Positions 1,595-57,835 of a DNA stretch of 64,000 nucleotides are shown here, in pieces. The stretch lies in assembly GCA_039545335.1 (NCBI GenBank), contig BCIN01000004.1:1168925-1232924 (forward strand), given 5' to 3'. Below the pieces are notes generated by a model. It did no database searches and was not told the DNA's origin. It was given only the letters and a program-made list of their open reading frames with translations. Position numbers and translations under genes: made by a program. Every line of letters starts with the position of its first letter. Positions within the stretch are counted from its first letter, which is position 1. Source of the stretch: Kondoa subrosea (Eukaryota).

Positions 1595-2213
1595 GCGACA
1601 CGAATCATCTTACTGCATCCACGCATTTTCGCATGTTCATTGCATTTCTAATCGCACATCAAACATTTTACGCTTTATGTACAACATAATTTTTTTTTCT
1701 TCTCGCCCTTTCATCTTCACATGTGGTCATCACCTTTCTTTCAAATCGGGGCGTCTTCTGTCTTCCACCACAAAGTATCGCCATTGCTGTGCATCGTTGT
1801 CTGCGTCATTCATTGTTCTTTTACTGGCTTGGTCAAGAAGTACTTCATAAAACAAAAACAAAAAACTCTCAAAGCAAGAAGAATTCAAACTTTCAAGATC
1901 CCATTTCTTAAATCCCTGAAACATCTCTATACCAATTACGGTCTGTCTCGCTCTCGCATTGTGTTGTGACAAAGCATTGGTATATGGCCATCAAGAGAAG
2001 AGAAGTAAAAGGAAAGAATTCTATTAATCGTCGTGATCTTGTATGTAAACGGGCAAAGCAAAGCACAAATAAATGGGTCACTGTTTCTTTCTTGTGCATC
2101 ACGGCTTTCATTGTCTTACAGATCGTTGCGTTTGAGCATTTTATACCGACTATGCAGATCGCGTTCATTTTCTCGTGTCAACGAGGACATTACACCTTTC
2201 CAGCACAGGTACC

Positions 2214-4838
2214 ATGGTCGCAGGCCCGGCGCTGAGTGTGTGGCCGAATGATACCGCGACAGAGCAGCAACAGAGCTATCTTCCATCTTTCCTAAGATCT
2301 AGGCAAACAGCAGATAGTCAGCCTCTCGCGCTCCATGAGGCTACTCACATGACTGATCAGACTGGACGCAGAGGATCTACAAACGGCAGCGAGCTATTTC
2401 ATCCCGCATCTGCCTGGCCTGCCGTCCACTTCAACCTTGAAACTGTTCGGAGGTCATATTCCAGTTTCACCAGCTTCGGCATCCCAGACTGCAGATGCAC
2501 ATTTGTTCTTCTTGCTCGCTAGAGCTAGACATATAGCTGCAAGAGAATCTTTAGTCATTTGGTTCAATGGATAAGTTGCATTTGACCGAACTGCTTGCTG
2601 CACTACGCGAGACTAATCTACTGTGCGGTAATTACAGGTCCTGGATGGTGAGCATAGCTGTCTCGTAGTACCGTAGAATTCTGAGATGGCAATTGTAGCT
2701 CAAGTTTCGATGGTGCTATGATGGAGGTTGGACCATTCCGATTACAAGCAGGCGAAGGAACAACTGGACGACCGACGTTAAGAGAAATAGATGGCGCATG
2801 GAATGAGTACTCCAATGTGCTGTTTCGTCAGTCTCTTGTCTCTACTATTTCTCGACCGGGATCGAAGCTGTCTTGTCAGTCGATCAACCGCCGGGAACTG
2901 GATACAGCTACATCAACACCAATAGCTACGTACACGAACTTACTGACGTAAATTCCAAGTTGGTCAAAAGTATGGATCGTTGAGCTAAAAATTGGTTCAG
3001 GCAGCGGAATATGTCGTGGAATTCCTACGCAAATTCTACCTTATCTTTCCCGAATTTGAAGATATGGATGTCTGTCTCCTCTTTGAACGCGCGAAAACAT
3101 GCAGCTGAAATTATAGCTAGACTTACCTCGCAGGGGAATCTTATGCTGGGCAATATATACCCTACACAGCTGATGCGATTCTCAAAACGACTGAAGTAGC
3201 TACACCACTCAAAGGGTGAGTCTCATCAATCTTTCAAACTTGTACCACTGACTTTGTTGATAGTCTGTTGATCGGAAACGGATGGATTGATCCTTGGAAC
3301 CAATACCCAGCTTACTACCCTTACGCAAAAGAGAATGGAGTGCTTATAGAAGGATCAGAGTCCGAAAAGAACGTCAAGAGTCTGCATGAGGCTTGTGTAG
3401 CGGAAATGACTTCTATTGGGAAAGATAAAATTGGTGTGCATGATGGTTCTTGCGAAAGAATCTTGGCTGCCATACTTGAAAGTACTGTTCAAACGTAAGT
3501 AGTGACCGGTCAAAGCCTGTGGGATCCACTGAAAGGCATTATAGGGTGGATGGCAAGAAGTTGTGCTTAAATACATATGATATTCGGTAAGTCGCTGTTG
3601 CTGGAGCTGACGCACGTCTTCATGATAATTTCAGGCTGACGGACGAACATCCTGCTTGTGGCATGAATTGGCCGCCAGATCTGAAGGAAATGTACGAGTA
3701 TCTACCGGTAAGATTACCTTCGTTTGCAGAATATACATACTGATCTCAGCAATAGCGAGACGACATTAAAGCAGCTTTCCATGCGTCTGCAAAAGAAGGA
3801 GGCTGGGTTGAATGCAACGGTCGAGTTGGAGCGAATTTCTACACCGCAAATTCAAGACCAGCAGTGAGCTTGTTGCCTTCTCTACTAGAACAAATACGTG
3901 AGTCTTCAATTGTTCAACTCTCATAGATCCTCATGATACTGGCTAGCGATATTACTGTTCGCCGGCGAACAAGATCTGATATGTAATTGGTTTGGCACCA
4001 AAGCACTAATAGACGACCTAGAATTCAATGGCGAAACGGGATTCGGAGATGCTCCTGAAGAAGAATGGTTCGTGGATGGCGACTTAGCTGGATCATGGCA
4101 AACTGCAAGAAATTTGACGTTGGTCAAAGTAGCAAATGCTTCGCATATGGTAAGCTTTTGATTATTACGATGACAGAGCGCTTCATGATGAGTCATCAGG
4201 TTCCATTCGACGTACCCCTTGTCTCGCATGATATGCTTCTTCGCTTCACTGCAACAGACATGATCAGTGCAGCGGGTCAAGCGGCTAAAGTGCCAAGTCG
4301 GATAGGAGCAGAAACTGAAGCGGTCATTAGCGAAACGCATCCGAACGGTACTGCAATAGAAGATATCGATGGCGCTCTAGCTGGCAACCTCGAAATAGGC
4401 GATCTACCAGCAGTAGCCAAAACCGGGGCTGAACATGTACGAGACACTTACTACAACATCGGATCAGCAGCCATCCTTCTCCTACTGTTTCTTGCTGTTG
4501 CTGGCATCTTCTTCTGCCTACGAGCTCGAGTACGCAAAGATTCAGCAGCTCGCTCTAGTGCAGGCTATTATGAAAGTCGGCCGTCAACGTCTTCTCGGAA
4601 AAGCGGTCGACGATCGCATAAACGAGGCATGTCAAGCGTTTCTTCAACAAAGACAAGAGGGAGCGACGATCATCATGAACTCGCTGAACTCGTCAAAAAT
4701 CAAGACGGAGAGTATGATTTGGAAGAAAGGGGCGCTTACCGCCAACCCAGAAGAGACGAAGAGGTCTTCTCCTTGGGTGATTCTGACGATGAAGCGGATA
4801 GAGAAGGTGATATAGGGAGAGCAGCTGATGACAGGTAA
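2214..4838 (+). CDS. KEX1: Kex1-type serine carboxypeptidase (S10) with C-terminal TM helix and acidic tail; start uncertain
   Basis: Motifs [26 protein letters not shown] (catalytic Ser), [16 protein letters not shown] and NASHMVP; TM segment [17 protein letters not shown]; tail [12 protein letters not shown]. Confidence 0.9.
2571..2635 (+). other. Putative AT-AC intron (U2-like signals) in KEX1
   Basis: AAT GG|ataagt...gactaat...aattac|A GGT CCT GGA restores the conserved NGGPG motif; there is no GT donor at the junction. Confidence 0.75.
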
Positions 4839-5207
4839 ACTCTCTTGTAAGATTTTGGGTTGTATGGGAGTTCAGACGGTCTTGTGAGGCGCTTTTGGCC
4901 AGCTTGCATTTGCAACGGTATGCTAAGAGCTTTCCCTTACGTAATCTGCCTCGCTTGCAGAATCACCAAGTTGCTCGATTTTGGTGAGCAAGAACGAATG
5001 CCCGTCAGCACGAGTCTGAAGCTCTGAATCAGTGCTAAATCACTACATCTCTGCTCAATTTAAGAGGTCTCTTTGTCTAAACAGTTTTGCCTTGCATTGC
5101 TTCAAGTTCTCGAGTGCAACGCATAACGCGGGGTTTCCTGTACGGTGTGATCCTGTCGTTCTGGCACTTCCCTCTACTCTTATTTACTTAGCATCAGCTC
5201 CTTCGCC

Positions 5208-7769
5208 ATGTATACCGCTTCAGTCGCATTCCTAGAAACTCTCAAAGCTGCAGGCGTAGATGTAGTCTTCACAAATCTGGGTTCAGATCACCCGTCCATA
5301 TCAGAGGCTATCGCAATGAGCACAAAGACCTCTTCAGAGTCAGCAATGCCTCGCTTCATTTCGGTCGCGCATGAAAGTCAGTGATCATGCGAAGCTCTGA
5401 GCCAGGCTGATGTGAGACGCCACGCAGTGGTGTAAGCTCTGTGTACCTCGCTTCAGAAGAGCGGACTGATCGCGAAGTAGAGCGCTAGCGGCTGCTCAAG
5501 GATACTATCAAGCAACGTGAGTTCTGCGATGATACGCTCATTGCCTTCTAACGAATTATACAGCGGCAAACTGGCTGCTGTGATCCTGTATGCTGGATTC
5601 GATCATTCTGACGATGTGTCTAATCATTAGTCTAGACATGTTGATTGCGGTCTCATGAATGCTGGCGGAATGATTCACAACCTCTGGCGTGGTCGTTGTC
5701 CTGCAATTGTGAGCCAATGCGATACATTGACGCAACAAGCTGATTAAATTGAAGATCTTTTCTGGTCTTTCGCCCATTACGCAAGAGAACGAGATGCGTG
5801 GATCGCGATCTGAATTCATACAGTAAGTAAACATCTTAAGAGTGTTTGCTCGGTTCAATACACAATCGCAGATGGGTTCAAGGTCAGTCTTTGCTTTATA
5901 GTGGAGCGTACAGTGCTGAAGGTTTTTCTTAGACACGCACGATCAACCAGGCCTTGTACGAGGATACTCGAAGTATTCCTACGAGTTCAGGACCGGAAAG
6001 AATATTGCTCAAGGTCAGGGCGAATTGTATACGCAGGCGATGATGCACTAATACTGAGTACTACATCAGTCACGATGCGAGCTATCCAAATAGCTATGTC
6101 GGAGCCTCGAGGACCAGTATAGTGCGCTGTGATCACGCGAATCACCACACACACGCTCATGTTCAACAGCTTGTTTGGCGCGCGAGAAATTATGGAAGAA
6201 GATCTAGCTGGACCAATTCCGCTCAAACTAGAACACTGGCAGCCAATTGGCGCATCAGCTCTACCGCCTAGTGGAGTCACGCAGATAGCTGACTTGCTCG
6301 TCAAGGCTAAGAGGCCTTTGATCATTTCTTCGTGGTTAGGTCAAAATCCAGCTGCATCAGTGGCTTTGGTCAAATTGGCGGAGAAGCTTTCAATACCTGT
6401 CCTCGATAATGCGCCTTTTGCTCTCAATTTCCCAACACAGCATGATCTGTATGCGGGCAATCATTGGACTGGAATGGGTCAAAACAAGATGCTAGCTGAG
6501 GCGGATGTAGTAATGAGTGCGCTGTCCTTCTGTTTAAGTGACATATCTAAATCATGGGCTCTGTAGTCCTTGACTCTGATGTTCCCTGGATTGCAACCCA
6601 AAACAAGCCGAACGAAGATGCTGTCATCGTCCATATCGATGCTGACCCGCTTAAATCTGCAATGCCTTTATTTTACATACCTGCGTCCTATCGGTACACT
6701 GTGTCGTCTTTGGAAGCAGTCAAGCAACTCGATACGCATATTACAGCAAATCACCTACAACCATACAAAGAGCAGATCTCTACTCGGCTGCAAGAAGCCA
6801 AAGAACGAGCAGCGAAGAGAAAAGAAGCATTAAGCAGTGCTGCTGCTATTCCTCCGAACCTCAACAGTCCTGCGCCAGCTGCTGTCGGCTTAGCTTGCCT
6901 TACGAGATGTCTGCCTGAAAATCGCTTTGTTGTTTGCGAAGCGATAAGCAAGTCAGTCCCTTTCTCTTCTCTCTATCGAAGGACAATCGCTGAGCGATTT
7001 CTAGTTTTGGAATTACTCTCGACCAGATGCAAATGAATGATTCGGCGCGATATGTTACTTCTGGTGCAAGCTCATTAGGTTATTCTGGTGGAGCGGCTGT
7101 GGGAGCAAAATTGGCATTCTCTATTGCTGGGAAAGATCGATTGGGCAAAGATGCGAGCAATACATTCGTTTGCGCAATTTGCGGTACGTTTGGCAAACGT
7201 TTTACTCTACTTCAAACTGAGTAATTACAACAGGCGACGGCACATACATGTTCAGCGTACATTTGATACTTGCTGAATTAGTCAGAAAATAGCTGATCTT
7301 GAATGAACAGGTGCCATCTTCGGTTCATCATTTGAGCTCCAAGATCTCCATGCCTTTTCTCACTGTCATCCTGGTGAATGGTGGCTGGAAATCACCTCGA
7401 CTGAGCACTTTGCTGGTGCATCCTAAAGGTCATGTTGCGAATTCATCAGGCGAAGATCTAGGAGTGACCTTCGGACGTGAGCGAATCCTTCTCCAGCAGT
7501 TTCATTGAGCTGACCCGCGCCGCAGCAAGGGAAACAAGGCCTCAATATGGAAAGATAGCTGTAGCTAGCGCGTAAGTCCGAATTGTCTCGCAGGTTGTTT
7601 TTCTGCTGACGGAGAATCTTTCGACAGAGGAGGTGAAACCAAGTGTTGGAGTGCTGTCGTTCTCTCTGGTGCACCCGAAATGGAGCAAGTCTTCCGAGAA
7701 GCCATTGACGTGGTGCAAAACGGAAGAAGTGCGGTCATTGAGCTTGTTCTCCCTGATCTGGATGCCTAA
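5208..7769 (+). CDS. Thiamine pyrophosphate-dependent enzyme (acetolactate synthase / benzoylformate decarboxylase-like), many short exons
   Basis: MYTASVAFLETLKAAGVDVVFTNLGSDHP, HEMVALAAAQGY (catalytic Glu), HVDCG and the TPP/Mg motif GDGTYMFS...VNGGW; all GT-AG introns stay in frame. Confidence 0.88.
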
Positions 7770-24783: not shown

Positions 24784-27700
24784 ATGCGTGTCTCCATTCC
24801 TTTCACACTACTAGCACTCCTGCGTGTTCACCAAGCTGCTGCTGCTGTATCAAGCGACTTTTGTACTTCGTAAGTCTGACTTTTTTTTGGCTTGAGATCT
24901 CCCGCCTTTGCTCATCCATGATTTCAGTGTGCAAGCGGCGGTCCTCGATGATAATGGAGAGATACCAGACGATGTAGAGGTACTTCTTTTCTACATTTCT
25001 TCTTCTCCGCAGTCTGACAACGAGTTCTCTTTAGGCTATATGCCGCACTTATCAAAACATACGGCCTGTAACCACTACAAACACCAACACCATTACTCAG
25101 GCAACCAAGACTGTCTCTCAAGCAGTATACACCACTTCTACAAGCATTGTTGCACCTGTTCTCACCAAATGGATGATCAAGATGCAAACTGTTGTTACGA
25201 GCATGGAGCCAGCTACCCAGTATGTCAGCCAGCTATTGCATTGTACAAGCTCATACTGGAACAGGACTGTTACTATGGAGATGCCTGATGAGGCGCAACG
25301 TCTCAAGAAGCGAGCTGCCGTCATGCCCGAATACTTTCAAGGAAAAAACAGGGCACAAGTTATTGAAGCCTGCAAATGCTTCGATATCATGGCCTCCACC
25401 TTCATCATTCAACGTACTGCTTATGCCAGTGAGTGGATCGTGACATTGTGACCGAATGCTGCTCATTGCGATTCCGATTAGCTGCCACTGTCACTAAAAT
25501 TCTACCTCGTATAATGTCAACTGTCATGACCAAACCAACCCAAACCATGATCGCCACAACGACCTCTAGTGAGTACATTCATTTAAAGTGGTCACAAATC
25601 TGACTTCACACGATGTTTAGTGAAACTGAAGACTTACAACATGCCTATCCCTTACTTCACTAAGTGGATCCAGAAGATTGCCAGTGCTGTTCCTTCATCC
25701 AAATCTGTTTCTGTCTCAGCAAGTGCAATCTCAAGCGCGCAAAGTGCGGCCGCAAGTGTTACGAGCCAAGTTCAATCTAGCGCTATCTCGGCTATCAGCA
25801 GCGCATCTGCGATCCCGTCTTCTGCAATCTCGAGCGCACAAAGTGTAGCCGCAAGTGTTACAAGCCAAGCCCAATCTAGTGCTATATCAAGCGCGCAAAG
25901 TGTGGCCGCAAGTGTTACTAGCCAACTTCCATCTGGCGCCTCCTCGGCTATCGGCAGCGCATCTGCTTTTGCCTCCTCCGCAATCCCATCTTCTGCCATT
26001 TCCGCTGCGAACAGTGCTGCTTCTTCTGCGATCCCGTCCTCTACAATTTCAGCAGCAGCTTCAGCAGTGTCTTCTGCTGTGGCCTCTGCACTACCATCTA
26101 ATGGACTTACAGCTCGATCATATGGTTATGATGCTTGCGTACGTTCATCCCCAGTTGAGTGATCGTGCACTGAATTTTCTTGTGCAGTACGCAGAAGGTC
26201 AAGATTCACGCGCTCTCTCTCCTATCTCCTCGTCGCCAGATATGACTGTCGAATCCTGTCTTGGGCTTTGCGCAGCTTCTGCTTTGGAAGTTTGCGGTAT
26301 GATGTACGGAAATGAATGGTTAGCCGTCTTCTACTGTTATACGCATAAACTGACCGAAGATTAAGCTGGGGAGCTCCTGCACTAGCCGATGGCACTTTCC
26401 GAGATCGCGAAACCTCTTGCTCGAGTACCTGCGTTGGCCGATCAGACGAGATTTGTATGTCGAGCTTGAATCTGAAGTTTATCAGCTGCTGATTATCTAC
26501 TCAGGCGGTGGATCCAACTTCTATTCCGTATACACTTTGACTTCTGGCAAGACTAAGCCTTTTGTGGTGCAACCAATTTCCAGTGCTGCCGCCTCGAGCA
26601 AAGCTGCCGCAAGTGCTTCAGCTACGGGCTCTTCTCTCACGGTATCATCCTACACCGCAGCTGGCTGTTGGTCGGACAATGTATCGGGCCGAACTTTGGC
26701 TACAAGACAGTTGCCAGGCTCAATGACTCAAGAGAAGTGTCTAGCAATTTGTGCCGCCAACAACGCCTACTACTGCGGAATGGAGTATTCTTCTGAATGT
26801 TTCTACAGCAATACTATCAACCCAGCTGCATCTCAGGTCGACCCTAGCACCTGTTCAATGGCTTGTCAAGGCAACTCCGCGCAGAAATGTGGTGGCTCAT
26901 CACGTCTTACCTTGTTCAGTCTGAACCCTAACCCTGCTCCTTATGTCAAACCTTCTGCTGTCTCTTCAGCTACAGCCAGTGCCAGCTCTACTACCCCTAT
27001 CAACTACGTATATGGATATGGTGGATGTGTAAGTCTTTCATTCACAAATCGATATCATATACTAATACCTGCCTAGTATGCCGAACCTTCTGGCGGAAGA
27101 GCTCTTCTGGCCGTCACCTCAAGCGCAAATATGACCGTGGAATACTGTTTGGCAGCTTGTGCCGCTAAGAAATACTCAATCTGCGGTCTTGAATGGAATG
27201 TACGTCTTCTTAGGAATTGGCTTATGGACAGGACTGACCAATTTCTATCTGACAGAGAGAATGCTGGGGTGGAAATTCTCTCGCTTCCGGAACTACAGTT
27301 GCACCGGAAAGCGAATGCAAACTTCCTTGTCTAGGTGATGCCAACGAAATCTGCGGTGGTGATTCTCGATTGAGCACATACAACATCGAAGCTGGAAAGA
27401 CCAACCCTTTCAAGAAGCCTACTGGTCCGCCTTCTTCTTCCGCGGTAGTTAGTTCAAGTTCAGCTGCACCTACTCCAACACAAGCTGTCGGCACTACCGC
27501 TAAACCGGTCATTGTTCAACAAGCGGGAACATATACATACCAAGGCTGCTTGCTAGAAGCTTCGGGCGTGAGTTCAGCCTTTTTCTCGTCAAGACTTGGT
27601 TTTGACATTGTTTTTCGGACATTAGTCTAGGACACTGCCTCGAGCGCTGGCATCTAACAATACCATGACTATTCCGATGTGCATGGAACTGGCGCGAATC

Positions 27701-29973: not shown

Positions 29974-31919
29974 TCAACCCTCTTCGACCTCATCTTCAGA
30001 CTCATCGTCCTTCGCTATGCCTATCAGACCACCTGTATCTCTTGCTTTTTGAGCTGCTGCTTCTACATCCTTGCCTAGCGCTCTAATACGATCGCCGAAG
30101 ACTCTTCGCACGCCTGCATTTTGAGCGCAATCCCACAGCTGGAGCGTACCGTTCGAACCTGCTGCAGCAATAGTTGTTGGATCATCTGGTGAGAGTTTAG
30201 CAGAGAATACGTTCCCCTAGAACCAATTGTCAACTTTGCTCAAATCCGCCTGACAGACTTAAGACTCACAACACCCATATCTCTCGAAGCAACCAAAGAA
30301 ATCTTTGTCTCTCCTCCCGTTTTCCCTCCTTCTAGTGTATTCCAAAGTTTGACAGTCTTGTCTTGACCACCAGTGACCAAAAAGCCATTGATGAGTTCAG
30401 AGAAATCCAAAGCAGAACAACTTTTATCATGAGCAGCCAAAGTCCAAAGCAGCGATTTATCTTTCTTGTTCTTCTCCTGCGCCTGCGCAACTGAATGCAA
30501 CATTCTTGAATCGTAAGATTTAACTAAACCATTCTCTAAAGCGCAAATGAATTCCGTTCCTCCAGTTGACCAAGGGTTCCATTTCACTGCTTCTACTTCC
30601 GCATCCACTTGAACTCCGACTGCTCCTTTTGGTGAACGTGAATCAAAGACTTGAACGGTTCCATCCCATGATCCAGATAAAAGAACAGTAGGTAAAGTAG
30701 TAGACCAAGATAAAGCTTGAACTTTATCTGAATGAATAGTATAAGATCGGATTGCTGGTGAAGACGAAGGAAGTGAAAGATCCCATAGTTTGATGGTTTG
30801 ATCTGCTGAGGCTGAAGCGAGTAAAGATCGATGCGACTTGTTCCAAGACAAAGCTAAAATGGAATCAGTGTGATAAGACGAAGAAGCCGCTGGTTCAGAA
30901 GGTATAGACTTAGACTTCTTCTTTTTCTTCTTCTTGGATTTGGAAGATTCGTCTAATGTTGTATCTTCTACTTTTGAAGTGAGAGCTTCTAGAGAAGTAG
31001 CTACATTTGCTTTGGGTGCGCCTAGAATCGCATCTGGGTATAAACCATCCAAGACATCCAGGTTCCAGATCTCGATTTCTGGATCCAATGTACCAACAGC
31101 GATGAAATTGCCTGGTTCACTTGAGGTGGAATCTTCCATCGAGCTTGATGATGCAGGGATATAATCTAGCCATTCGAGACAAAGAGGCATAGCAGGTAGT
31201 AATAGATCATGATGCACGTAAAGATTTTCTTGAGTTTCATCGTAGACGTATATATCCAGTTGCGATACTTCATCTTCTGTTCGAGCTGTTACTATCAGGT
31301 TGTCTGTAGGGAAGATTTCTAGTTCTTCTCTGTCATCGCCATCGTTGATTTCGCTCTGTACATCAATATAAGTAATTGCGTTCGACTGAAAACGAGCTAC
31401 TTACCTCTTTCAACGTAATATAAGGATCTTCTTCTTCGTTCCCATGAAATTGTAGACCTCTGACTTACAAGATCAGCGTTTGACTAAGTCAGAAGACAAA
31501 GGGACCGACTTGATGTTACTAAAAGCACCCATCGCTGAACCAGTACTTCGTTCCTTATCGTAGTCATCCAGGTTATAAATGGACAGATCATCCGGATCCG
31601 CTTTCTGACCAGATCCAGCCTTCAGCCTAGTTGCAGCAGCTCTCGCAGTCGCTTTTGCTGCATCTTCCATTTCGACATCATTGTCTGCTCCTGAACCTGA
31701 GCCTTCCTCGTCTGTTCCCCATTCAGCTTCACTTCCATCAATATCTCCAGATTCAGCTAAGCCTTGAGCAGCTTGCAGCTTCATTTTCGCTTCATCCAAT
31801 TCTACAGCTGCAAGTTTACTGATTCGAGCCAGCTCTTCTTCAGTCAAGGCATATTTCTGAGGCGTTTGGGCTGCCTTGCCTCGAGGTACCCAGCTAAGGG
31901 AAGTGATCAGATTAGGCAT
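29974..31919 (-). CDS. PWP1: Periodic tryptophan protein 1 (WD40, ribosome biogenesis)
   Basis: ITSLSWVPRG, YNLDDYD, DPYITL, LYVHHDLLLPAMPLCLEWLD, PEIEIWNLD and WD40 repeats. Confidence 0.92.
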
Positions 31920-41864: not shown

Positions 41865-44026
41865 TTACTGCTCGGCTACTTCCATGCTCGCATCGCCTAC
41901 ACTCGCATCGAAGCTGTCATCAGCTCCGACCATAGATTCATCCGCGTCATTTGGCGTGGCCATATATTTGCCTCGACCTAAGAAGATCAACTCATTCCTC
42001 TTCTTAGGCGGTCCTCGGACTCTCGGTTTCGGCGGAACTTGTTCTTCTTCGCTTTCTGATCCTTTCTTTGCACCCTTTTTGCCTTTTCCATTTGCTTTCT
42101 TGCCTTTCTTCGATGATGGACCAGCGGAAGAGTCGTCCTTGCCTGATACAGGGGGTCGACCGCGTTTGACTTTGTATGACTGTAGATCTGAGCCCATAGA
42201 GGGATGCCAACGAGGTCTCATAGTGCCTCTGCTATACACTGGTGCCACCTCTTCTTGCTCGATTTCTTCCGCTAGAGGGACATCTTCTTGGAGTGGTGGT
42301 GGAGGAGGATTGGGATCGATAGAAGCAGAACGAACGAATGCGCCAAGATCAGCCGACCAAACAAAACCTTCGAATTCCGTTTGTTGCTGAACTTTTTGTA
42401 GAGTTTGATAAGCTGCTATACTGGCGTAAGGAACATTGGTTTTAGGATCTTTGTAGCGAGCTGGTTGTCCCGTCATTGGACAGATGATAGGTCTTCGAGC
42501 TAGACGCACTATTAGCCAATGTTTGCATAAAGGTTGAAGAAGACCTACTTAGCGGTCGGCCTTTCGCAGGAATGATCTTAAGGTTCTCCCAATCTACATG
42601 ATCGCCGAACAGAGCAGTCATCTTCCGCGCATAAGGTTTCTGACCGCCATCATCTAATTGATCTAAATCTTCCAGCGTGATGAGCGTCTTTAGGTAGGGT
42701 GGATCAACTTCTTCTTCTGCTTCTTCTTGTCGAGCTTCAGTCGCAGGATTTGCAGTCTCTTCAGTGTTAGCAAGAGCTTCGGTCGATGGTAAAAGAGGCT
42801 CATTGATTAGCGTAGCAGATGAGGGACCTTCTTGAGGAAGTGCACTTGAGCTGGCCTCAGGATTTTTGGACTCTGCTGACTGTTTCGCAGAGCGGACTTG
42901 TAAGATCGCGTTAGGTTGTTCAATCTCTTGAATTCTTTTCCGCTTCTTTTCTCGTTCACCTCCCATTGTAGTGCTGATCCAGGTCAGCCTTGGGCCATAG
43001 ATCCCATAACCACCCGTTCCATGTAATCCATGTTCCCCAAATTCTCTTCTGATTTCTTCCGCTTCATAGAATGCTCTTAGACTCGCTTTGTTCAATTCTT
43101 CCGTTGCCAAAGCTTCTTCAATCAATTCAGTCTGAGTCCATTCCCTTTCTGATTTGGTAAGTTTATCACTTGCTCTTCTCGCCAAGATTTTATCGCGGTA
43201 AGCTTTAATTCGAGCTGCATCTTCAGCAGCACGTTCATCGACTTCTTTATTGAATTGAACAGCAGCAGTACGGGTAGAAGATCTTTCTGCAGGTGTACGA
43301 GAAGGCATGAATGTTCCACCTGGTGAATAACGACTTCGTTTTCTGCTTGCTGAAGGTTCATTCTCTGATTTTCGAGCTGCGAAAGGTTTGTGAATACGTT
43401 TCTTGAGACCTCGACCACCGGCACGTTTCTCACGAGCTTCCTATGAGAAGTAATAGTACATTAGAGTTGCTGGGAGTGGAATGTTGAAGCGAGACCTTAC
43501 TCTTCGAGCTTGTTTCTCTGCTCGCCGAAGTTGTTTCTCAGGACTAGCTTCTTCGCCTTCTTTATCTTCACTCTCCGATGAAGTCTCGCCAAAATCAGAA
43601 TCGAAGATATCCTTGTCATCTACATTCGACTTTGAGTGTCCATACTCGAACTCTGACTATAAAACTGCTATTACCTTTAGCTACAGCTTCGAAATCTTGA
43701 TCATTCTCTTCTTCAGCGAACAGTTCTTCAGCTTCCACTTCGCCTTCCTGATCCAACAAAGCTCGCATTCTATCCAAGACATGAGTAGGGAGTTGAGTAG
43801 AATGTAATTTAAAGACACACCGACTACCAGCATTAGCACGACGTTCTCTAGTGACTACAGCAGCTTCAATCTCCTCCTCCTCCTCTTCCGAACCTGATTC
43901 TGCATTTGAGTCTTGATCAATATCCATACTCTGCCCTTCTGATCCAACAGCGCGCTGGCTTTCATTATGTGTATGCCCTTCAGAGGTATACGGCACAGCG
44001 CTTGTGCTGGCTTGCGGGGTATTCAT
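41865..44026 (-). CDS. VPS72: SWR1 complex subunit Vps72/YL1
   Basis: RERRANAGSRMRALLD, DIFDSDFGETS, TQTELIEEALATEELNKASL and the YL1_C motif CPMTGQPARYKDPKTNVPYA. Confidence 0.9.
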
Positions 44027-50577: not shown

Positions 50578-52834
50578 ATGGCCAAGTTGTATGCGCTGGC
50601 AGCCAACGGTCTAGCTGGTTTGACACCGCCAATGCATTCAACTTCAAAGCTTCAGGGAGGAAATACAGAAAGTTCGGGCGCAGCTGCACAGATCAAGTGC
50701 TCAGATTGCGGTCATCAAGTACCTCTACTATCACTCGGCTCTCATATCTGTGCTTGGCCGGAGGAAGATGCCTCTACTGGTCGAAATACACCTCGCTTGA
50801 GACAATTCTCGCAAGAATCGCGACAAGATGTGTCAGAGAGGGGTCTAGGGATAGATACTGGATCAAGCAAGAAATGGAACTTCAAAGCAGCAGGTCTGCG
50901 TATCAATACAGCCGCAAGATCATTCAAAGGTTAGCTCTTGTTTGTGCAATGGTATGAGTCAAGCTGACGGTCCCGATGCAGCTAGTCTGGCACCTCCTTC
51001 TCCCAGCACTCAGTCACTACCATTGACATCACCGCGGCAACCTCTCACTCCTCTTAGCAATGCTCCAAGTCCTTCTTATTCTACTTCATGTCTTTCACCC
51101 AATCCCTATCCATCAACAGCTCTAGATATACCTTCTCCGACCCACCTGGATAGCTCTGCATCAAGTCCTGGAGCATCGCCTTCGCAGAAATTACCATTCT
51201 TCGAAAAATACGCTCGAGTGTACGGAAATTCACATCAACATACTGCATCGAGCTCAACAACTACCTCAAGCCAGACATCATACACCCTCAATACCCCTTC
51301 TTCCTTTGGGACTGGTTCAACATCACCTTCGCCTCGATCTCCAGCTTTCTCGAACCAACCTCTTCTCAGTACCTCAAGCAGTACCTCCTCTCTTGCAAGC
51401 AGTACCGATAGTTCTGCACACAGCAATTCATATTTCTCTCGACGTAGTCCAGATACAAGCCCAGATCTAGAAGACGAAGTTGACCATGACCTCCGACTAA
51501 CTCTAGAATCGTCAGATCCGGCATTTGATCTCAACCCGAAAGGCAACATTTCACCAGCATACAACTCACCGTCTCTTCGATTGATGCAACAAACTCGTCC
51601 TTTGCAAACAAGAAGCAAAACTGATCATTCACCTCCCCGAGATGGAATAGATTCAGGCAACAAACGAACAGTACCTATTCCTAATCGGAGTATACCAGAA
51701 CGAAAACCATCTTTACCAAGATCTTCTAGCGACTCAGCCGAATCCAATGGACTGGCTAGATTAGGCATGAGCATGTTAACGGCTTCTCAATCTGAACCTG
51801 TTTCTCTGCATTCTTTAGCCAGCTCTTCTTCTTCATCAACAATGACTCCATCGAAAAGCATGTATAAATTGGATGAACTGTTGGAGGACTTATCTTTTGA
51901 TGATGATACCAAACAAGATGAATTGACCAAAACTCCCCAACCTCAAGATCGGGATTCTTTGGATTTCTTTTCCGAAAGTTATACTTACGATATAGAAGAT
52001 ACACCTAAACTAGAACAAGTTAGTAAAGTGAAAGCATGCTTGAATTGTGGGAAACAAGTTTTTGTCGGCGAAGAAGGTGTAGTGGAACAAGAGCAGGATG
52101 GAAGTGCGATTTGTGGTACTTGTTTTGCTGAACGCTATTTACCTAAATGTCGGAAATGCAAAAAGGCGATAGAAGGGAAAGCGATAGGAAGTGGAGACGG
52201 TAAAGTCAAGGGCAAGGTGAGCTCCTTTCAATGCGGATACGATGTATGGAAGTGCTGATCTGCATTTGGTCAGTTTCACCCTGCTTGTTTCAGTTGCTTC
52301 GCTTGCGATGTTTCCCTCTTTCCAAATAAGGAATTCTATGTATGTCTTTTCGGTCAAACTCTTGATTGCATAGTACTCATGCACTTCTGATGCAGGTCTT
52401 TGATGAACGGCCCTACTGCAACAGACACTATCATAAGCTAGCTGGATCACTATGTAGAGGATGCAACAAAGGCATCGAAGGCGCTTGCGTTTCCTTAACC
52501 ACCTCTAAATCAGATTCTCGGTCTAGCGGCAAGAAATGTGAGTTGATTTACCGCTGCTCGAGGTAGCATGGCTGATAAGGCAAATGCAGATCATCCCGAC
52601 TGTTTCCGCTGCAGTGATAAAAGCTGCTCTACTCTCTTGCCAGACTATCACTACGTTCTCGACGGTCAACCATTCTGCGAAGTTCATGCGGCAGAACAAG
52701 AAGCTTCTTCCCTTGTCGACGATTATGCCGATCCGAAGACTGGTAAACGAGTCAGCGATGCACCTAGACGAGCAGAAAAGCGAAGAACAGTCATTGCGGC
52801 AGTAGGATCGAACAGCAATAGGACAAGGCGGTGA
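50578..52834 (+). CDS. Paxillin-like LIM-domain protein (Pxl1-like)
   Basis: N-terminal CSDC...HIC; C-terminal LIMs CRKC...FHPACFSC...PYCNRHYH and CRGC...YHPDCFRC...PFCEVH. Confidence 0.85.
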
Positions 52835-53018: not shown

Positions 53019-55191
53019 TTACTTCTTTTGCAAATCCGTTTCATTCAATACATTCAACCAGTTCTCCCCTACTTCATTCCTCAATGCTTCGATCTTCTTT
53101 CTGAACGCATCACCCTCATTAGGCGTTGGTAATGGCGGTTCGAAGAATCCTTGGTTGATAGCAGGTCGATTTGATCTTTCTCTAGATAAACGACCAAGGG
53201 TTGAAGACCTTCCTGTAGTGGAAGAAGAAGAGATAGGTGCTAGTTTAGGTCGCGAGGACTTATGTGCTACTGTATTGTAGCGAGATGATGAGTTCTGATG
53301 AGGAGCAGAAGGTGAACGTTGATGAACTTTTGCTTCATCCTCTTCTTCCAAAGCTGGTGAAAGCATAGCAGGAGAGGGAGTAGCTGAAGGCAGGAGGGAA
53401 GAGTTGGGCGGTAGTAGAGCGGGAGAAGGTAAAGCTGATGAATCGCTAGCGTCTTCTGCAGCGGTAATGAAAGAAGCTACAGTAGTTGGTGGAGGAGAGA
53501 CGAAAGTGGTTGTACCGTCTAGATTGACAATTCTGCGTGGTGCTTTCCGTTTCTTTGGTTTATGAGCTACAGGTGTAGCTTTTCCAGGTTGATTGCGTTG
53601 TTCATCAGGTGAGCTCGGTCTTTCTGCTGGAGCATCTTTGACGATAGTAGTAGCAGTACTGACGTTCCTTTGCCTAGCTGACACCTTCTTGGCTTGCAAA
53701 GCGGCTTCTTTCGCAGCTTGCTCTTGTTTAACAGCTTTCAACTTCGTTTGAGTTTCAGGTGCACCAATCCAACGGGATTCCTGCCAAGAAGGGTTCGTCC
53801 CATCCAATTTGATCGTAGTATTCGAATGAGTGTGAAAAGCGGTAAAGAGCGCAACTCGCCAATCAAAGACTTTTTCTCGAGTATTGAAGAGGTTGCCCTC
53901 GGCACACCAGACTTCTTGAATATGAGGTAACGCGGCTAGACGACCAACTTCACCAGAATCTTCCAACAGATTATTCGTTATGTCGACAGAACGTAGATTT
54001 AACAATCGTTCGAGCCCGCAAAGAGAGGTAAGACGGTTGCGAGAGAGGTTAAGCGAGACGATGGCGCCCAGTTGAGAAGATATAGAGAGGATGGAATCAA
54101 TCATGTTGTCCGATAGGTTTAGTGATCGAAGGGATATGAGGGAGAAGAGGCCTGCAAATAACGTTAAGTACAATTCAACTGTAGCTAGAACAGATTTTCG
54201 TACCAGAAGGAATGGCAACCAGTAAATTGCTCGAAAGGTCCAGATGTACAAGATTATCAAAATGATCCCAAGGACAAGAAGAAATGAACGTGATGTCATT
54301 TTCAGGAAGTGCCAATCTCCTCAATGATCTCCATTTTGACGGCGAAAGTACTTTGACTGGTTCTTCACCATCAATTAGCCGATTATCCACTTTCACGCCA
54401 GCTCTCCTTTTCGCATCATCCACTACTGCATCGACAAACAAGCGACCGATATCTTCCAACCCGCTTCTCCTGATCTCCAAGCTTTTCAAAGAGTCTGCCA
54501 AGAAATCCCAGCCCAAAATAGCTAGCGGATCCAGGTTTTCCAGAACGAGTGATTGGAGATTTTTGAAAGCGTATAAAGGAACATGAACGCCATCTGGAAT
54601 AGTTTCAAAGTCTCGAATAAATCCATTCAGCGGAGGAGGCGGTAAAGCTGGTGAAAGATGTAGAGAAGGAAGTTTGGTGAAGCAGGCATAGACGAAACGA
54701 GCTTCGGTGAGTAAGAAATCTTTGTTCTTCGCGTTGAGGGCTTGTGAAGAAGATGAGGAGAACAAAGAAGAACCAAATGTGAATGTCGTAGAGACTGCAG
54801 AAAGGATCGACGAGGCGTCCGACTTGTCTTTGGCGTAAGAAAGAGCGGAGAGATCACCTCCGTTTTGCAAGACACTGACGAAAGAAAGAGGACGAGTAGG
54901 AGGAGAAGAAAGTGGAAAGTCTACAGGACCGGTTTGTGTCGCTGTTATGCCTGCCTCTTCAAATCGCAGCAAGAGGTAAGCGAGATGATGAGGGTCCAGT
55001 CTAAGCGTCAAAGGCTTGATCTCTTTTGCTGGAATACCCAGCCAAGAAGGCTGCGAGACTACTCTGCGACCAGGCAGAAGATTGGCAGCTGTAGCTTGGG
55101 AGAGAGCCCGCTCGTGAGCTCGAAGCCATTTGGCGAACGCTTGAAGATAGGCATCGCCGTCCATGACCGCCTGCGATTGTCTGGTAGACAT
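53019..55191 (-). CDS. Leucine-rich-repeat protein (nischarin/STK11IP-like fungal family)
   Basis: LVHLDLSSNLL, LRSLNLSDNMI, VSLNLSRNRLTSLCGLERL; one intron; C-terminal FRKKIEALRNEVGENWLNVL. Confidence 0.82.
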
Positions 55192-55698
55192 ATTGCCACT
55201 CTGAAGGTGTGAGCAGTCTAGGGCATTGCTTGAGAGGTCGGCATATGGTCCAACTTGACTTAGTTTTTGGCAAGGAGTGGTCGAATAATCGAAACTTGCT
55301 TTGGTTCTTTACTAAACACCTCGTTGGCTTCGTCTGCGTCCGCAAGACCTAGCCATAGCTGTCAGACAGGTGCCTCGCCTTGGAACAGCGAGAGATTTCG
55401 CCGTCGCAGCGCTGCCATCAAACACAGCTCCCAAGAACCAGCCTACCTCTTTAAAACCATTCAAATCAGCACTGACAAGCTCAGAATCGGTCAAGCTTGG
55501 TCAAGCCGTCCTCTGCTGTTTCAAATAAGCGCATAATTTCGTCTTATCCCTGCCTATCTTAAGACCCAGCATAAATCGAGTTCTCGAAACGTGGTCCGGT
55601 CTCCCATCGACCTGCTCAGCCCGCTCTCTATCTTGCAAGTCAAAGCCAGCATTGCCTAGGTCAACAGCAGTCCCCGGAATTCCCTTTTTGAAAGCTAC

Positions 55699-57835
55699 AT
55701 GTCAGCTTTGACGGCAAACTATCGCCCTGCAAACTCTTCGTTCTCTTACAAAGATCCTTCTGGGCAACAAGCATACTCTTCCTCATCATCTGCAAGTCTC
55801 ATTATCCCATCAAAGCCATCGAATTCAAGCACATACCAACCTATTTCCACCGCGACTATGCCTTCCCTTCGCTCTGGCAATGCTTCTACTACAACTACAA
55901 CCGTTCAAACTCAACCTACTTCATCATACAGAACTACAGCTAATGTTACTCGAGCTCAACCAGCTGTTAGACAAGCACCAGTTCGCAAAAATGGTTACAA
56001 AGTCGAAATGGAAAAGTCCAAGAAGGATGGCAAAGTAAAAGAAGTCATTGTGCTCGATTCTGACGACGATGAAGAAGATCAAGCAGAATCAACCGCTTCT
56101 TCTTCCAATGTACCTGCAAAGAAGAGGAAAGTCAATACCTCGGGCAAAGCGGTTGCGTCTACTAGTACTACTTATCAACCTGTAGCCTCTACAAGTAGCG
56201 CCGTTGTTGTTCCGAGAAAGATCGCTGCTTCCGGAGTTGGTGGCAAACGTAAACAGCCCGACCAAGCGGGTCCTTCCTCAAAGGTATTCGTCTTTATTCC
56301 TGTCTATTTATATGGTATGCTTACTCTGCTATGCGCCTAGGTCACCAAGAAAGAAGCTGTTCCGGCTGTACAGCAAAGTTGCGATGATAAAGAAGGACAT
56401 TTCGTCGTTCGAGCTGGCGAATTCCTGAGCGACGGTAGATGTAAGTTTTCTCCTGCCGCATGCTTTGTTCCAATTGCTGAATATCGTCTGGTCAAAATTC
56501 AGACAAGATCGAGAAATTGCTCGGACAAGGCACGTTCGGCAAAGTCGTAGAAGCTTATGATAAGCGAAACAAGAGCTGGGTCGCAGTCAAGATCATTAGG
56601 TCCATCCAGAAATACAGGTCCGTCGGCAATACAAAGCGGTTTGGTGTTGGGCTAATATAAAGCTATTCTTGACGACAGGGATGCAAGTCGAGTGGAAATA
56701 CGAGTTCTCAACTTGTTGAGAGAACAGGACCCAAACAATGATCAGTGAGCTTAATAGTGGCATCGCTTCCGATTGCGTAGCTCACCCTCTCTCTCTAGCA
56801 ACTGCATTCATTTGATCGACTGCTTTGACGATCGCAATCATATATGCATCGTCACCGAGTTGCTATCAGTATCGGTCTTCGACTTCCTTAAGGAGAACAA
56901 TTACGCTCCTTTCCCTTCGAGTCACATTCAGCACTTTGCCAAACAACTGCTGTCGAGCGTTGCTTGTAAGCTTTTGGAGCATTCACTACGAGAAGTTTTC
57001 TGACATAGCTTCGCTCCAGTCTTGCACGATTTGCGCTTGATTCATACCGATCTCAAGCCGGAAAACATTCTTCTGGTAGACAACGAATCTACCTGTCTTG
57101 TAGACCCGAATCCCGTTCGCTCTTATCTTGCTGCTCTGTGAACTTGATCTGAAATCGTGTACAGAAAGCTGGCGATAAACCAAGGCGGATACTAAAAGAC
57201 TCTTCTATCCGCTTGATCGATTTCGGGAGTGCGACTTTCGAGGAAGATTACCACGCTACAGTGGTCTCTACACGTCATTACCGAGCACCAGAGATCATCC
57301 TGGGTTTAGGCTGGACTTTCCCTTGCGATGTTTGGTCAATTGGTTGCATTTTAGTCGAATTCTATACCGGTGAAGCTCTCTTTCAGACCCATGATAATCT
57401 GGAACATCTGGCTATGATGGAAGTCGTCTTTGGAAAGATGCCTGACAAATGGGCGAGGTTAGCTAGGTCAGTTCGCGCTCTCCGTTTGTGCGAATTTGGG
57501 CTGACACAATTTCTCGTGTAACCAGTCGCAGCAAACCTGAATGGTTTAGAGGAACCAAGCTGGATTTCCCGAAGAGCGATACTTCGAGGCAAAGTCAAAA
57601 ATTTGTTAAGCAAATGAAGCCGCTGAATGTGAGTGCTGCTCTACGTCGTCGAGGCGTCAAATGCTGAGTCGGATCTCAGGCGATCATCCCTTCCACCTCT
57701 ATTACTCTGGCAAGGTTCCAAGATCTGCTCACGAAGCTTCTTACTTGGGATCCTTTACATAGGATAACGGTCAAAGAAGCTCTGCGACATCCTTTCTTCT
57801 CTCTTGACATTCAAGATGAAGGATCAATGCCATGA
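55699..57835 (+). CDS. LAMMER dual-specificity kinase (Kns1/Lkh1/CLK family)
   Basis: [38 protein letters not shown] and the signature EHLAMME. Confidence 0.95.

Follow-up and report, generated by a model that had tools for sequence, protein, structure and literature searches.

Introns with AT and AC termini that are removed by the major spliceosome (U2-type or type II AT-AC introns) are well documented in few cases, mostly from animals; a compilation for five model species holds 24 of them among 610,067 introns (PMC1557818). According to the same source, SCN4A and SCN5A provide experimentally shown cases, xylanase genes of fungi have been hypothesised to contain others, and in both yeast and human a G-to-A change at the first intron base is rescued when the last base changes from G to C, "although less efficiently" (PMC1557818). 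The two terminal bases of an intron are described as a non-Watson-Crick pair in which A-C can replace G-G (PMC11585973). For the donor of these introns a very strong /ATAAGT consensus is reported (PMC5029451), which also underlies their classification in PMC1557818. Among fungi, an AT-AC pair inside the RPL30 intron of Saccharomyces cerevisiae, which has no minor spliceosome, is reported to be used at 1-2% (PMC5029451), cDNA of Fusarium graminearum confirmed AT-AC as well as GA-AG junctions (PMC3577648), and AT-AC is described as rare in fungal annotations (PMC7072748). For Basidiomycota, the statements in two surveys are that no convincing minor introns or minor small nuclear RNAs (snRNAs) were found (PMC10639083, PMC11347168). 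Here we describe a further candidate of this class, the 65-nt intron 2571-2635 (+ strand) of a KEX1-like gene, located in a 64-kb stretch of contig BCIN01000004.1 (the window, to which all coordinates refer unless a metagenome locus is named). The intron sits inside the NGGPG active-site motif, and it is likely, judging from the sequences compared below, that it works as a U2-type (type II) AT-AC intron, that the KEX1-like gene is functional and that the host is a basidiomycete yeast with relatives among the Microbotryomycetes. It is an example of an already known, rare intron class and reveals no new mechanism; in the literature searched, with subscription journals outside the coverage, no paper reporting AT-AC introns for KEX1 genes or for Pucciniomycotina was found.

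The KEX1-like gene and its candidate AT-AC intron

The gene (2214..4838, + strand) was modelled with 13 exons encoding 667 amino acids and a stop codon; the placement of its start codon and of intron 1 (2317-2371) is tentative. After splicing, the frame runs without interruption from start to end, and the model protein is 51-54% identical to proteins of Sporobolomyces and Rhodotorula over about 610-625 aligned residues. These genera, basidiomycete yeasts of the Microbotryomycetes, provided the best named matches. Used as queries for homologues, the C-terminal exon and exon 3265-3492 retrieved two and eight proteins, respectively, and exon 2 (2372..2570) gave no match. Three single exons matched Pfam PF00450, one with 52.1 bits above the cut-off and two with 16.3 and 19.1 bits below the cut-off of 21.9 bits, because these two exons are short. 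Exon 3937-4149 matched the structures of carboxypeptidase Y (CPY) and Kex1, and for P0002, one of the related proteins, Kex1 (1ac5) was the best match in the Protein Data Bank (PDB) with an E value of 2.9e-87. The predicted product thereby marks the host locus as a KEX1-like gene of the S10 serine carboxypeptidase family. Twelve introns were modelled, of which 11 are GT-AG introns of 48-55 nt each and the twelfth is the 65-nt AT...AC intron. As 11 introns are of the GT-AG type, the 667-aa frame is open and the identity of 51-54% extends along its length, the gene does not appear to be a decayed pseudogene.

The model resembles Kex1p of S. cerevisiae (1ac5) and CPY (1ysc/1wpx) in its S10 motifs, which include an Asp-containing stretch, NASHMVP and, given AT-AC splicing, WFNGGPGCSS. 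By analogy with CPY and Kex1, the motifs of the catalytic Ser, Asp and His are among them. At the C-terminus a hydrophobic stretch, which may be a membrane span, is followed by a charged, acidic tail as in the relatives. Unlike Kex1p and CPY, no obvious N-terminal signal peptide was found at the tentative modelled start (MVAGP...), which resembles that of P0002. An upstream open reading frame (ORF) at about 1990-2207 contains a hydrophobic stretch and ends with CAG|GTACCA; attempts to connect it to the model gave no in-frame join. The KEX1 gene of S. cerevisiae reportedly has no introns, compared to 12 in the gene of the window.

Exon 2 ends with ...TGG TTC AAT GG, which encodes W F N and supplies two bases of a Gly codon, so that the following intron is in phase 2. 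The adjoining 5' splice site ATAAGT (2571..2576) agrees with the CAG|GTAAGT consensus throughout +2 to +6 (five of five positions) and deviates from it at +1, where A replaces G; only two of ten other firmly placed introns also reach 5/5 there. As the hexamer itself occurs 24 times in the window, at chance level (26 expected), the non-random feature of this donor is its position. A branch-site-like GACTAAT (2611..2617) contains a match to CTRAY (CTAAT), and its presumed branch A (2616) is 19 nt away from the intron's 3' end, within the range of 10-26 nt observed for the other introns of the gene. The intron ends with AATTAC, with 2635 as its last base, and within ACAG (2634..2637) the AC terminus (2634-2635) directly adjoins an AG (2636-2637), with which a 12-nt microexon begins. 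This microexon, AGGTCCTGGATG (2636..2647), contributes the last base of the Gly codon, G P G and the first two bases of a Cys codon. The downstream intron GTGAGC...TGTAG (2648..2698) is canonical, 51 nt long and in phase 2 inside the Cys codon, after which the frame goes on with C TCA AGT TTC GAT GGT. The microexon is therefore flanked by introns of 65 and 51 nt, the former being the only non-GT-AG intron and the longest of the 12. The exon end at 2570, the donor, the branch-like element and the 3' end all read as the first-pass annotation of this DNA had given them.

Signals of U12-type introns were looked for at the AT-AC intron, and neither an ATATCC donor (the donor is ATAAGTTG) nor a TCCTTAAC-like branch motif was present. 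RTATCCTT was found three times in the 64-kb window, in line with a chance expectation of 3.3, and none of the three copies lies at the AT-AC intron. A single ATATCCTT occurs elsewhere, at 43607, by eye antisense of a minus-strand gene. The assignment to the U2-type is suggested because the donor equals the /ATAAGT consensus, a CTRAY branch site lies at -19 and motifs of the U12-type are missing. Accordingly worded as a model, the major spliceosome would recognise the donor via the perfect match of TAAGT (+2 to +6) to the consensus bound by U1 and U6, branching would take place at the CTAAT element, and the second step would select the AC at 2634-2635, with A(+1) pairing non-canonically with the C at the last position. 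This A-C pair would act as an isosteric substitute for the usual G-G pair, and joining of the 12-nt microexon would then give an mRNA encoding W-F-N-G-G-P-G-C-S-S.

With the human type II introns of SCN4A, SCN5A and TAF2 (Sheth et al. 2006, PMC1557818) the predicted intron shares the AT/AC termini, the /ATAAGT donor and the lack of U12 motifs. Those introns, as far as they are described there, are from animals, were shown experimentally or are conserved among orthologues, and reside in genomes with a minor spliceosome, whereas the intron of the window belongs to a basidiomycete-like fungus, is not common to the relatives compared, comprises 65 nt, abuts a 12-nt microexon and is known from DNA alone. 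Similar to AT-AC splicing in S. cerevisiae (Parker & Siliciano 1993, cited in PMC11585973), the host would be a fungus without minor spliceosome, and A(+1) would be combined with a last-base C for the second catalytic step. AT-AC splicing of RPL30 is reported as a side product that does not encode protein and uses a donor unlike /ATAAGT (PMC5029451); in the window, by contrast, a functional protein would require AT-AC splicing, and the donor conforms exactly to the textbook sequence. The AT-AC and GA-AG introns of the filamentous ascomycete F. graminearum, observed by RNA-seq (PMC3577648), and the AT-AC II introns hypothesised for xylanase genes of filamentous fungi (PMC1557818) are likewise rare non-canonical introns of Dikarya ascribed to the major spliceosome. 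The Fusarium introns come from a different phylum and from different genes and were verified on cDNA, whereas the intron described here is predicted from DNA.

Splice boundaries and the family motif

All donors within 2545-2600 were combined with all acceptors within 2600-2645, with the remaining exons fixed. The frame was preserved and free of stops for 438 pairs, none of which was GT-AG or GC-AG. Full restoration of the motif was achieved solely by removal of 2571-2635 (AT-AC) and by a 1-base shift to 2572-2636 (TA-CA), which gives the same mRNA. Removal of 2571-2635 yields WFNGGPGCSSFDG, and the joins 2570^2636 and 2647^2699 together encode W-F-N-G-G-P-G-C-S-S-F-D-G; the spliced translation hence agrees with the first-pass annotation, which had derived W-F-N-G-G-P-G-C-S-S from excision of these 65 nt.

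How strictly the family keeps this motif was counted in 159 proteins from a representative search, from which nine with more than 1300 aa were skipped and 24 did not cover the site. GGPG was present in 123 of the remaining 126 homologues (121 NGGPG, one QGGPG and one SGGPG), and the form with one Gly, N-G-P-G-C, in none of them. Eight of eight named or close relatives covering the site show W[FL]NGGPGCSSFDG. The three S10 representatives without GGPG are P0047 (WFNGGCVILDG), P0158 (WFNGWPRMLFLDG) and P0100, which has a gap in a poor model; they may reflect mis-called splice sites at the motif or inactive paralogues. P0158 further carries GESFGG and ASHSPN. When the possible products were scored with a profile from 134 homologues, 629.5 bits were obtained for the AT-AC product, 619.2 bits for a GA-AG product and 588.2 bits for a GT-AG product that skips the microexon. 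The AT-AC reading is favoured because only the AT-AC boundaries, or the shift leading to the same mRNA, give the family-invariant motif.

The window was also scanned by regular expressions for intron-like elements, defined by their terminal letters and combined with a 25-codon ORF-joining test. GT..AG elements were enriched (51 candidates, 29 of them ORF-joining on the + strand), and AT..AC elements (24 candidates, 10 joining) were no commoner than control pairs, for example CT..AG (34 candidates, 20 joining). As the microexon is too short for the joining test, the scan is blind to intron 2571-2635 and hence uninformative on other AT-AC introns.

Gene structure in relatives

For a comparison of gene structures, metagenome loci were collected with an alignment of seven relatives and the patterns AWNEYAN and W[FL]NGGPGC, giving 588 stretches, of which 559 were confirmed and the best 80 kept. 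The motif is contiguous and free of introns in 77 of these 80 loci, a proportion to be read with the bias of the pattern W[FL]NGGPGC toward uninterrupted motifs. The other three, L034, L013 and L020, have their Trp codon split (TG|G) by a GT-AG intron, whose site precedes the AT-AC site of the window by 9 nt and has the same phase (L034 270-375, L013 496-626 and L020 1521-1612). L013 has in addition a 17-nt microexon (G TTC AAC GGT GGG CCT G) and, behind it, another GT-AG intron at G|GC (642-703), which lies 4 nt upstream of the second intron at the motif in the window, so that both microexon boundaries are shifted relative to the window. L034 is 79% identical to a Rhodotorula graminis protein. 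Among the best 80, L034 and L013 are the loci closest to the protein of the window, neither of them being close.

An intron at F|(I/L/V)DQP is common to the gene of the window, L034, L013 and L020. Base-by-base reading of introns covered this site, the Trp-codon site and the G|GC site of L013; about six intron positions of the window coincide with L034 and L013, approximately placed by the ends of tblastn high-scoring segment pairs. The first-pass annotation had suggested a look at the orthologous intron in relatives, and this comparison did not bear out a shared AT-AC intron. The AT-AC state is, on the sequences at hand, specific to the lineage of the window, since L034, L013 and L020 have the GT-AG intron 9 nt upstream instead. 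An alignment of intron sequences with the relatives, as a test for sliding, yielded nothing alignable at about 50% protein identity, and by eye the 3'-terminal 9 nt of the AT-AC intron match GTTCAACGG of the relatives at three of nine positions. The AT-AC intron may be a displaced Trp-codon intron or a separate gain. The more specific scenario of a constitutive major-spliceosome AT-AC intron in a lineage free of the minor spliceosome, which arose from the Trp-codon GT-AG intron by a move of 9 nt downstream and thereby created the 12-nt microexon, is in our view doubtful. If it were true, expression of the active-site motif would depend wholly on pairing of A(+1) with C(-1) in the presence of a decoy AG 2 nt away, and the locus would be a natural reporter of 3' splice-site proofreading, with intron boundary migration through non-canonical termini caught in the act.

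Competing explanations, significance and neighbourhood

As an acceptor, the AG at 2636-2637 looks normal (CAG), and its use together with a GA donor would remove 2570-2637 (equivalent to 2571-2638 or 2569-2636; join 2569/2638), leading to WFNGPGCSSFDG and W-F-N-G-P-G-C-S-S in a frame that is kept and free of stops. The earlier claim that this AG needs a GA donor and costs one Gly is borne out by this product, a Kex1 that is one Gly shorter. GA-AG introns have been reported from RNA-seq in F. graminearum (PMC3577648). Nevertheless, GA-AG splicing is very unlikely here, given that the one-Gly form was seen in 0 of 126 homologues, that the product scores 10.3 bits below the AT-AC product on the family profile, and that a GA donor would place A at +2, a near-invariant position of fungal introns, with the TAAGT match out of register. 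The further suggestion of the first-pass annotation, that this AG could compete with the AC and lower the output of Kex1, gained no support from the present data. According to yeast genetics summarised in PMC1557818 and PMC11585973, A at +1 pairs with C and not with G at the last position, which speaks against much use of the AG, though AT-AC rescue is described as less efficient than GT-AG splicing. Joining of donor 2571 to AG 2637 (join 2570/2638) causes a frameshift with a stop about 40 codons on, and retention of the intron an immediate stop (GGA TAA), as expected for a crippled gene in which the intron is poorly or not removed, or mis-spliced to the AG, and in which little or no active Kex1 is made. 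The AT...AC termini would then be a recent lesion, which is compatible with their absence from relatives and with the reduced efficiency reported for AT-AC rescue (PMC1557818). A(+1) and C(-1), however, lie exactly at the only boundaries that restore frame and motif, the donor is otherwise a perfect consensus, and the remaining 11 introns are intact, as is the entire 667-aa frame; such a compensating pair would not arise from one inactivating hit. We consider a crippled gene unlikely.

The sole canonical option that keeps the frame is removal of 2562-2698 (137 nt), from a GT in the Trp codon (2562-2563, TG|GTTCAA) to the AG at 2697-2698. It would start at the Trp-codon site that holds the intron in L034, L013 and L020, skip the microexon and give ...S-L-V-I-C-S-S-F-D-G, with loss of W-F-N-G-G-P-G. 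This solution is highly improbable: its donor GTTCAA matches the consensus at GT only, its length of 137 nt is more than double that of every other intron modelled (48-65 nt), its product scores 41 bits below the AT-AC product, and the bases lost encode F-N-G and G-P-G-C perfectly, which would be unexplained if they were intronic. Removal by the minor spliceosome would fit the observation that AT-AC introns of animals and plants are mostly U12-type (353 versus 24 U2-type in a table of PMC1557818). It is hardly credible for this intron in view of the ATAAGT donor, the missing TCCTTAAC-like branch motif, RTATCCTT at chance level, zero matches to Rfam families, those of snRNAs included, within the 64 kb of the window, and the lack of minor introns and minor snRNAs in Basidiomycota stated by the two surveys (PMC10639083, PMC11347168). 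As draft genomes often owe their non-canonical splice sites to errors, a mistake of base calling or assembly at 2571 and/or 2635 was also considered. It is largely refuted, and scarcely to be expected any more, by Logan contigs from two DNA runs, with word depths of 142 and 52.7, in which 2000-4900 of the window is reproduced without differing letters or gaps. This includes the donor base at 2571, which the first-pass annotation had singled out for such a check, and shows that the letters at the AT-AC intron are no assembly slip. Moreover, a G at 2571 combined with AG 2637 breaks the frame, so that two coordinated errors would be needed.

The major-spliceosome AT-AC intron put forward by the first-pass annotation is hence the reading best supported by motif, donor, branch and phylum, with splicing itself a prediction; we infer the use of 2571/2635, the type of spliceosome and the efficiency of splicing from the DNA. 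Several points weigh against it. L034, L013 and L020 contain neither an orthologous AT-AC intron nor a covariation from G-G to A-C. The absence of U11, U12, U4atac and U6atac is assumed from the phylum, which in turn rests on best hits of about 50-55% identity. Rescue of A1 by C(-1) is reported to be less efficient than GT-AG splicing (PMC1557818), and full expression would not be guaranteed. Finally, both DNA runs are from one sample, possibly the source of the window itself, and so are no strain-independent confirmation.

If confirmed on RNA, the intron would provide basidiomycetes with a clean natural case of a U2-type AT-AC intron of obligatory use, in which a functional protein is obtained only via A-C terminal pairing. 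It might also serve as a natural probe for the fidelity of the second step. It is also an annotation trap. Gene callers restricted to GT/GC-AG introns either break the gene or pick the 137-nt solution, which silently deletes W-F-N-G-G-P-G; a caller limited to GT-AG probably chooses this pseudo-intron, 2562-2698.

The neighbourhood was inspected by eye from ORF translations. On the + strand, the KEX1-like gene is preceded by an ORF with the look of an RRM-type RNA-binding protein (2-1594) and followed by one resembling a thiamine-diphosphate enzyme (5151-7224); further + strand ORFs look like a LIM-domain protein (52000-52420) and a protein kinase (56900-57530). On the - strand, a WD40 protein (30243-31400) and a leucine-rich-repeat protein (53019-55308) were noted by their look. 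A serine/alanine-rich repetitive ORF at 25587-26162 (+ strand) consists of repeats of SAISSAQSVAASVTSQ... and may encode a secreted or cell-wall protein.

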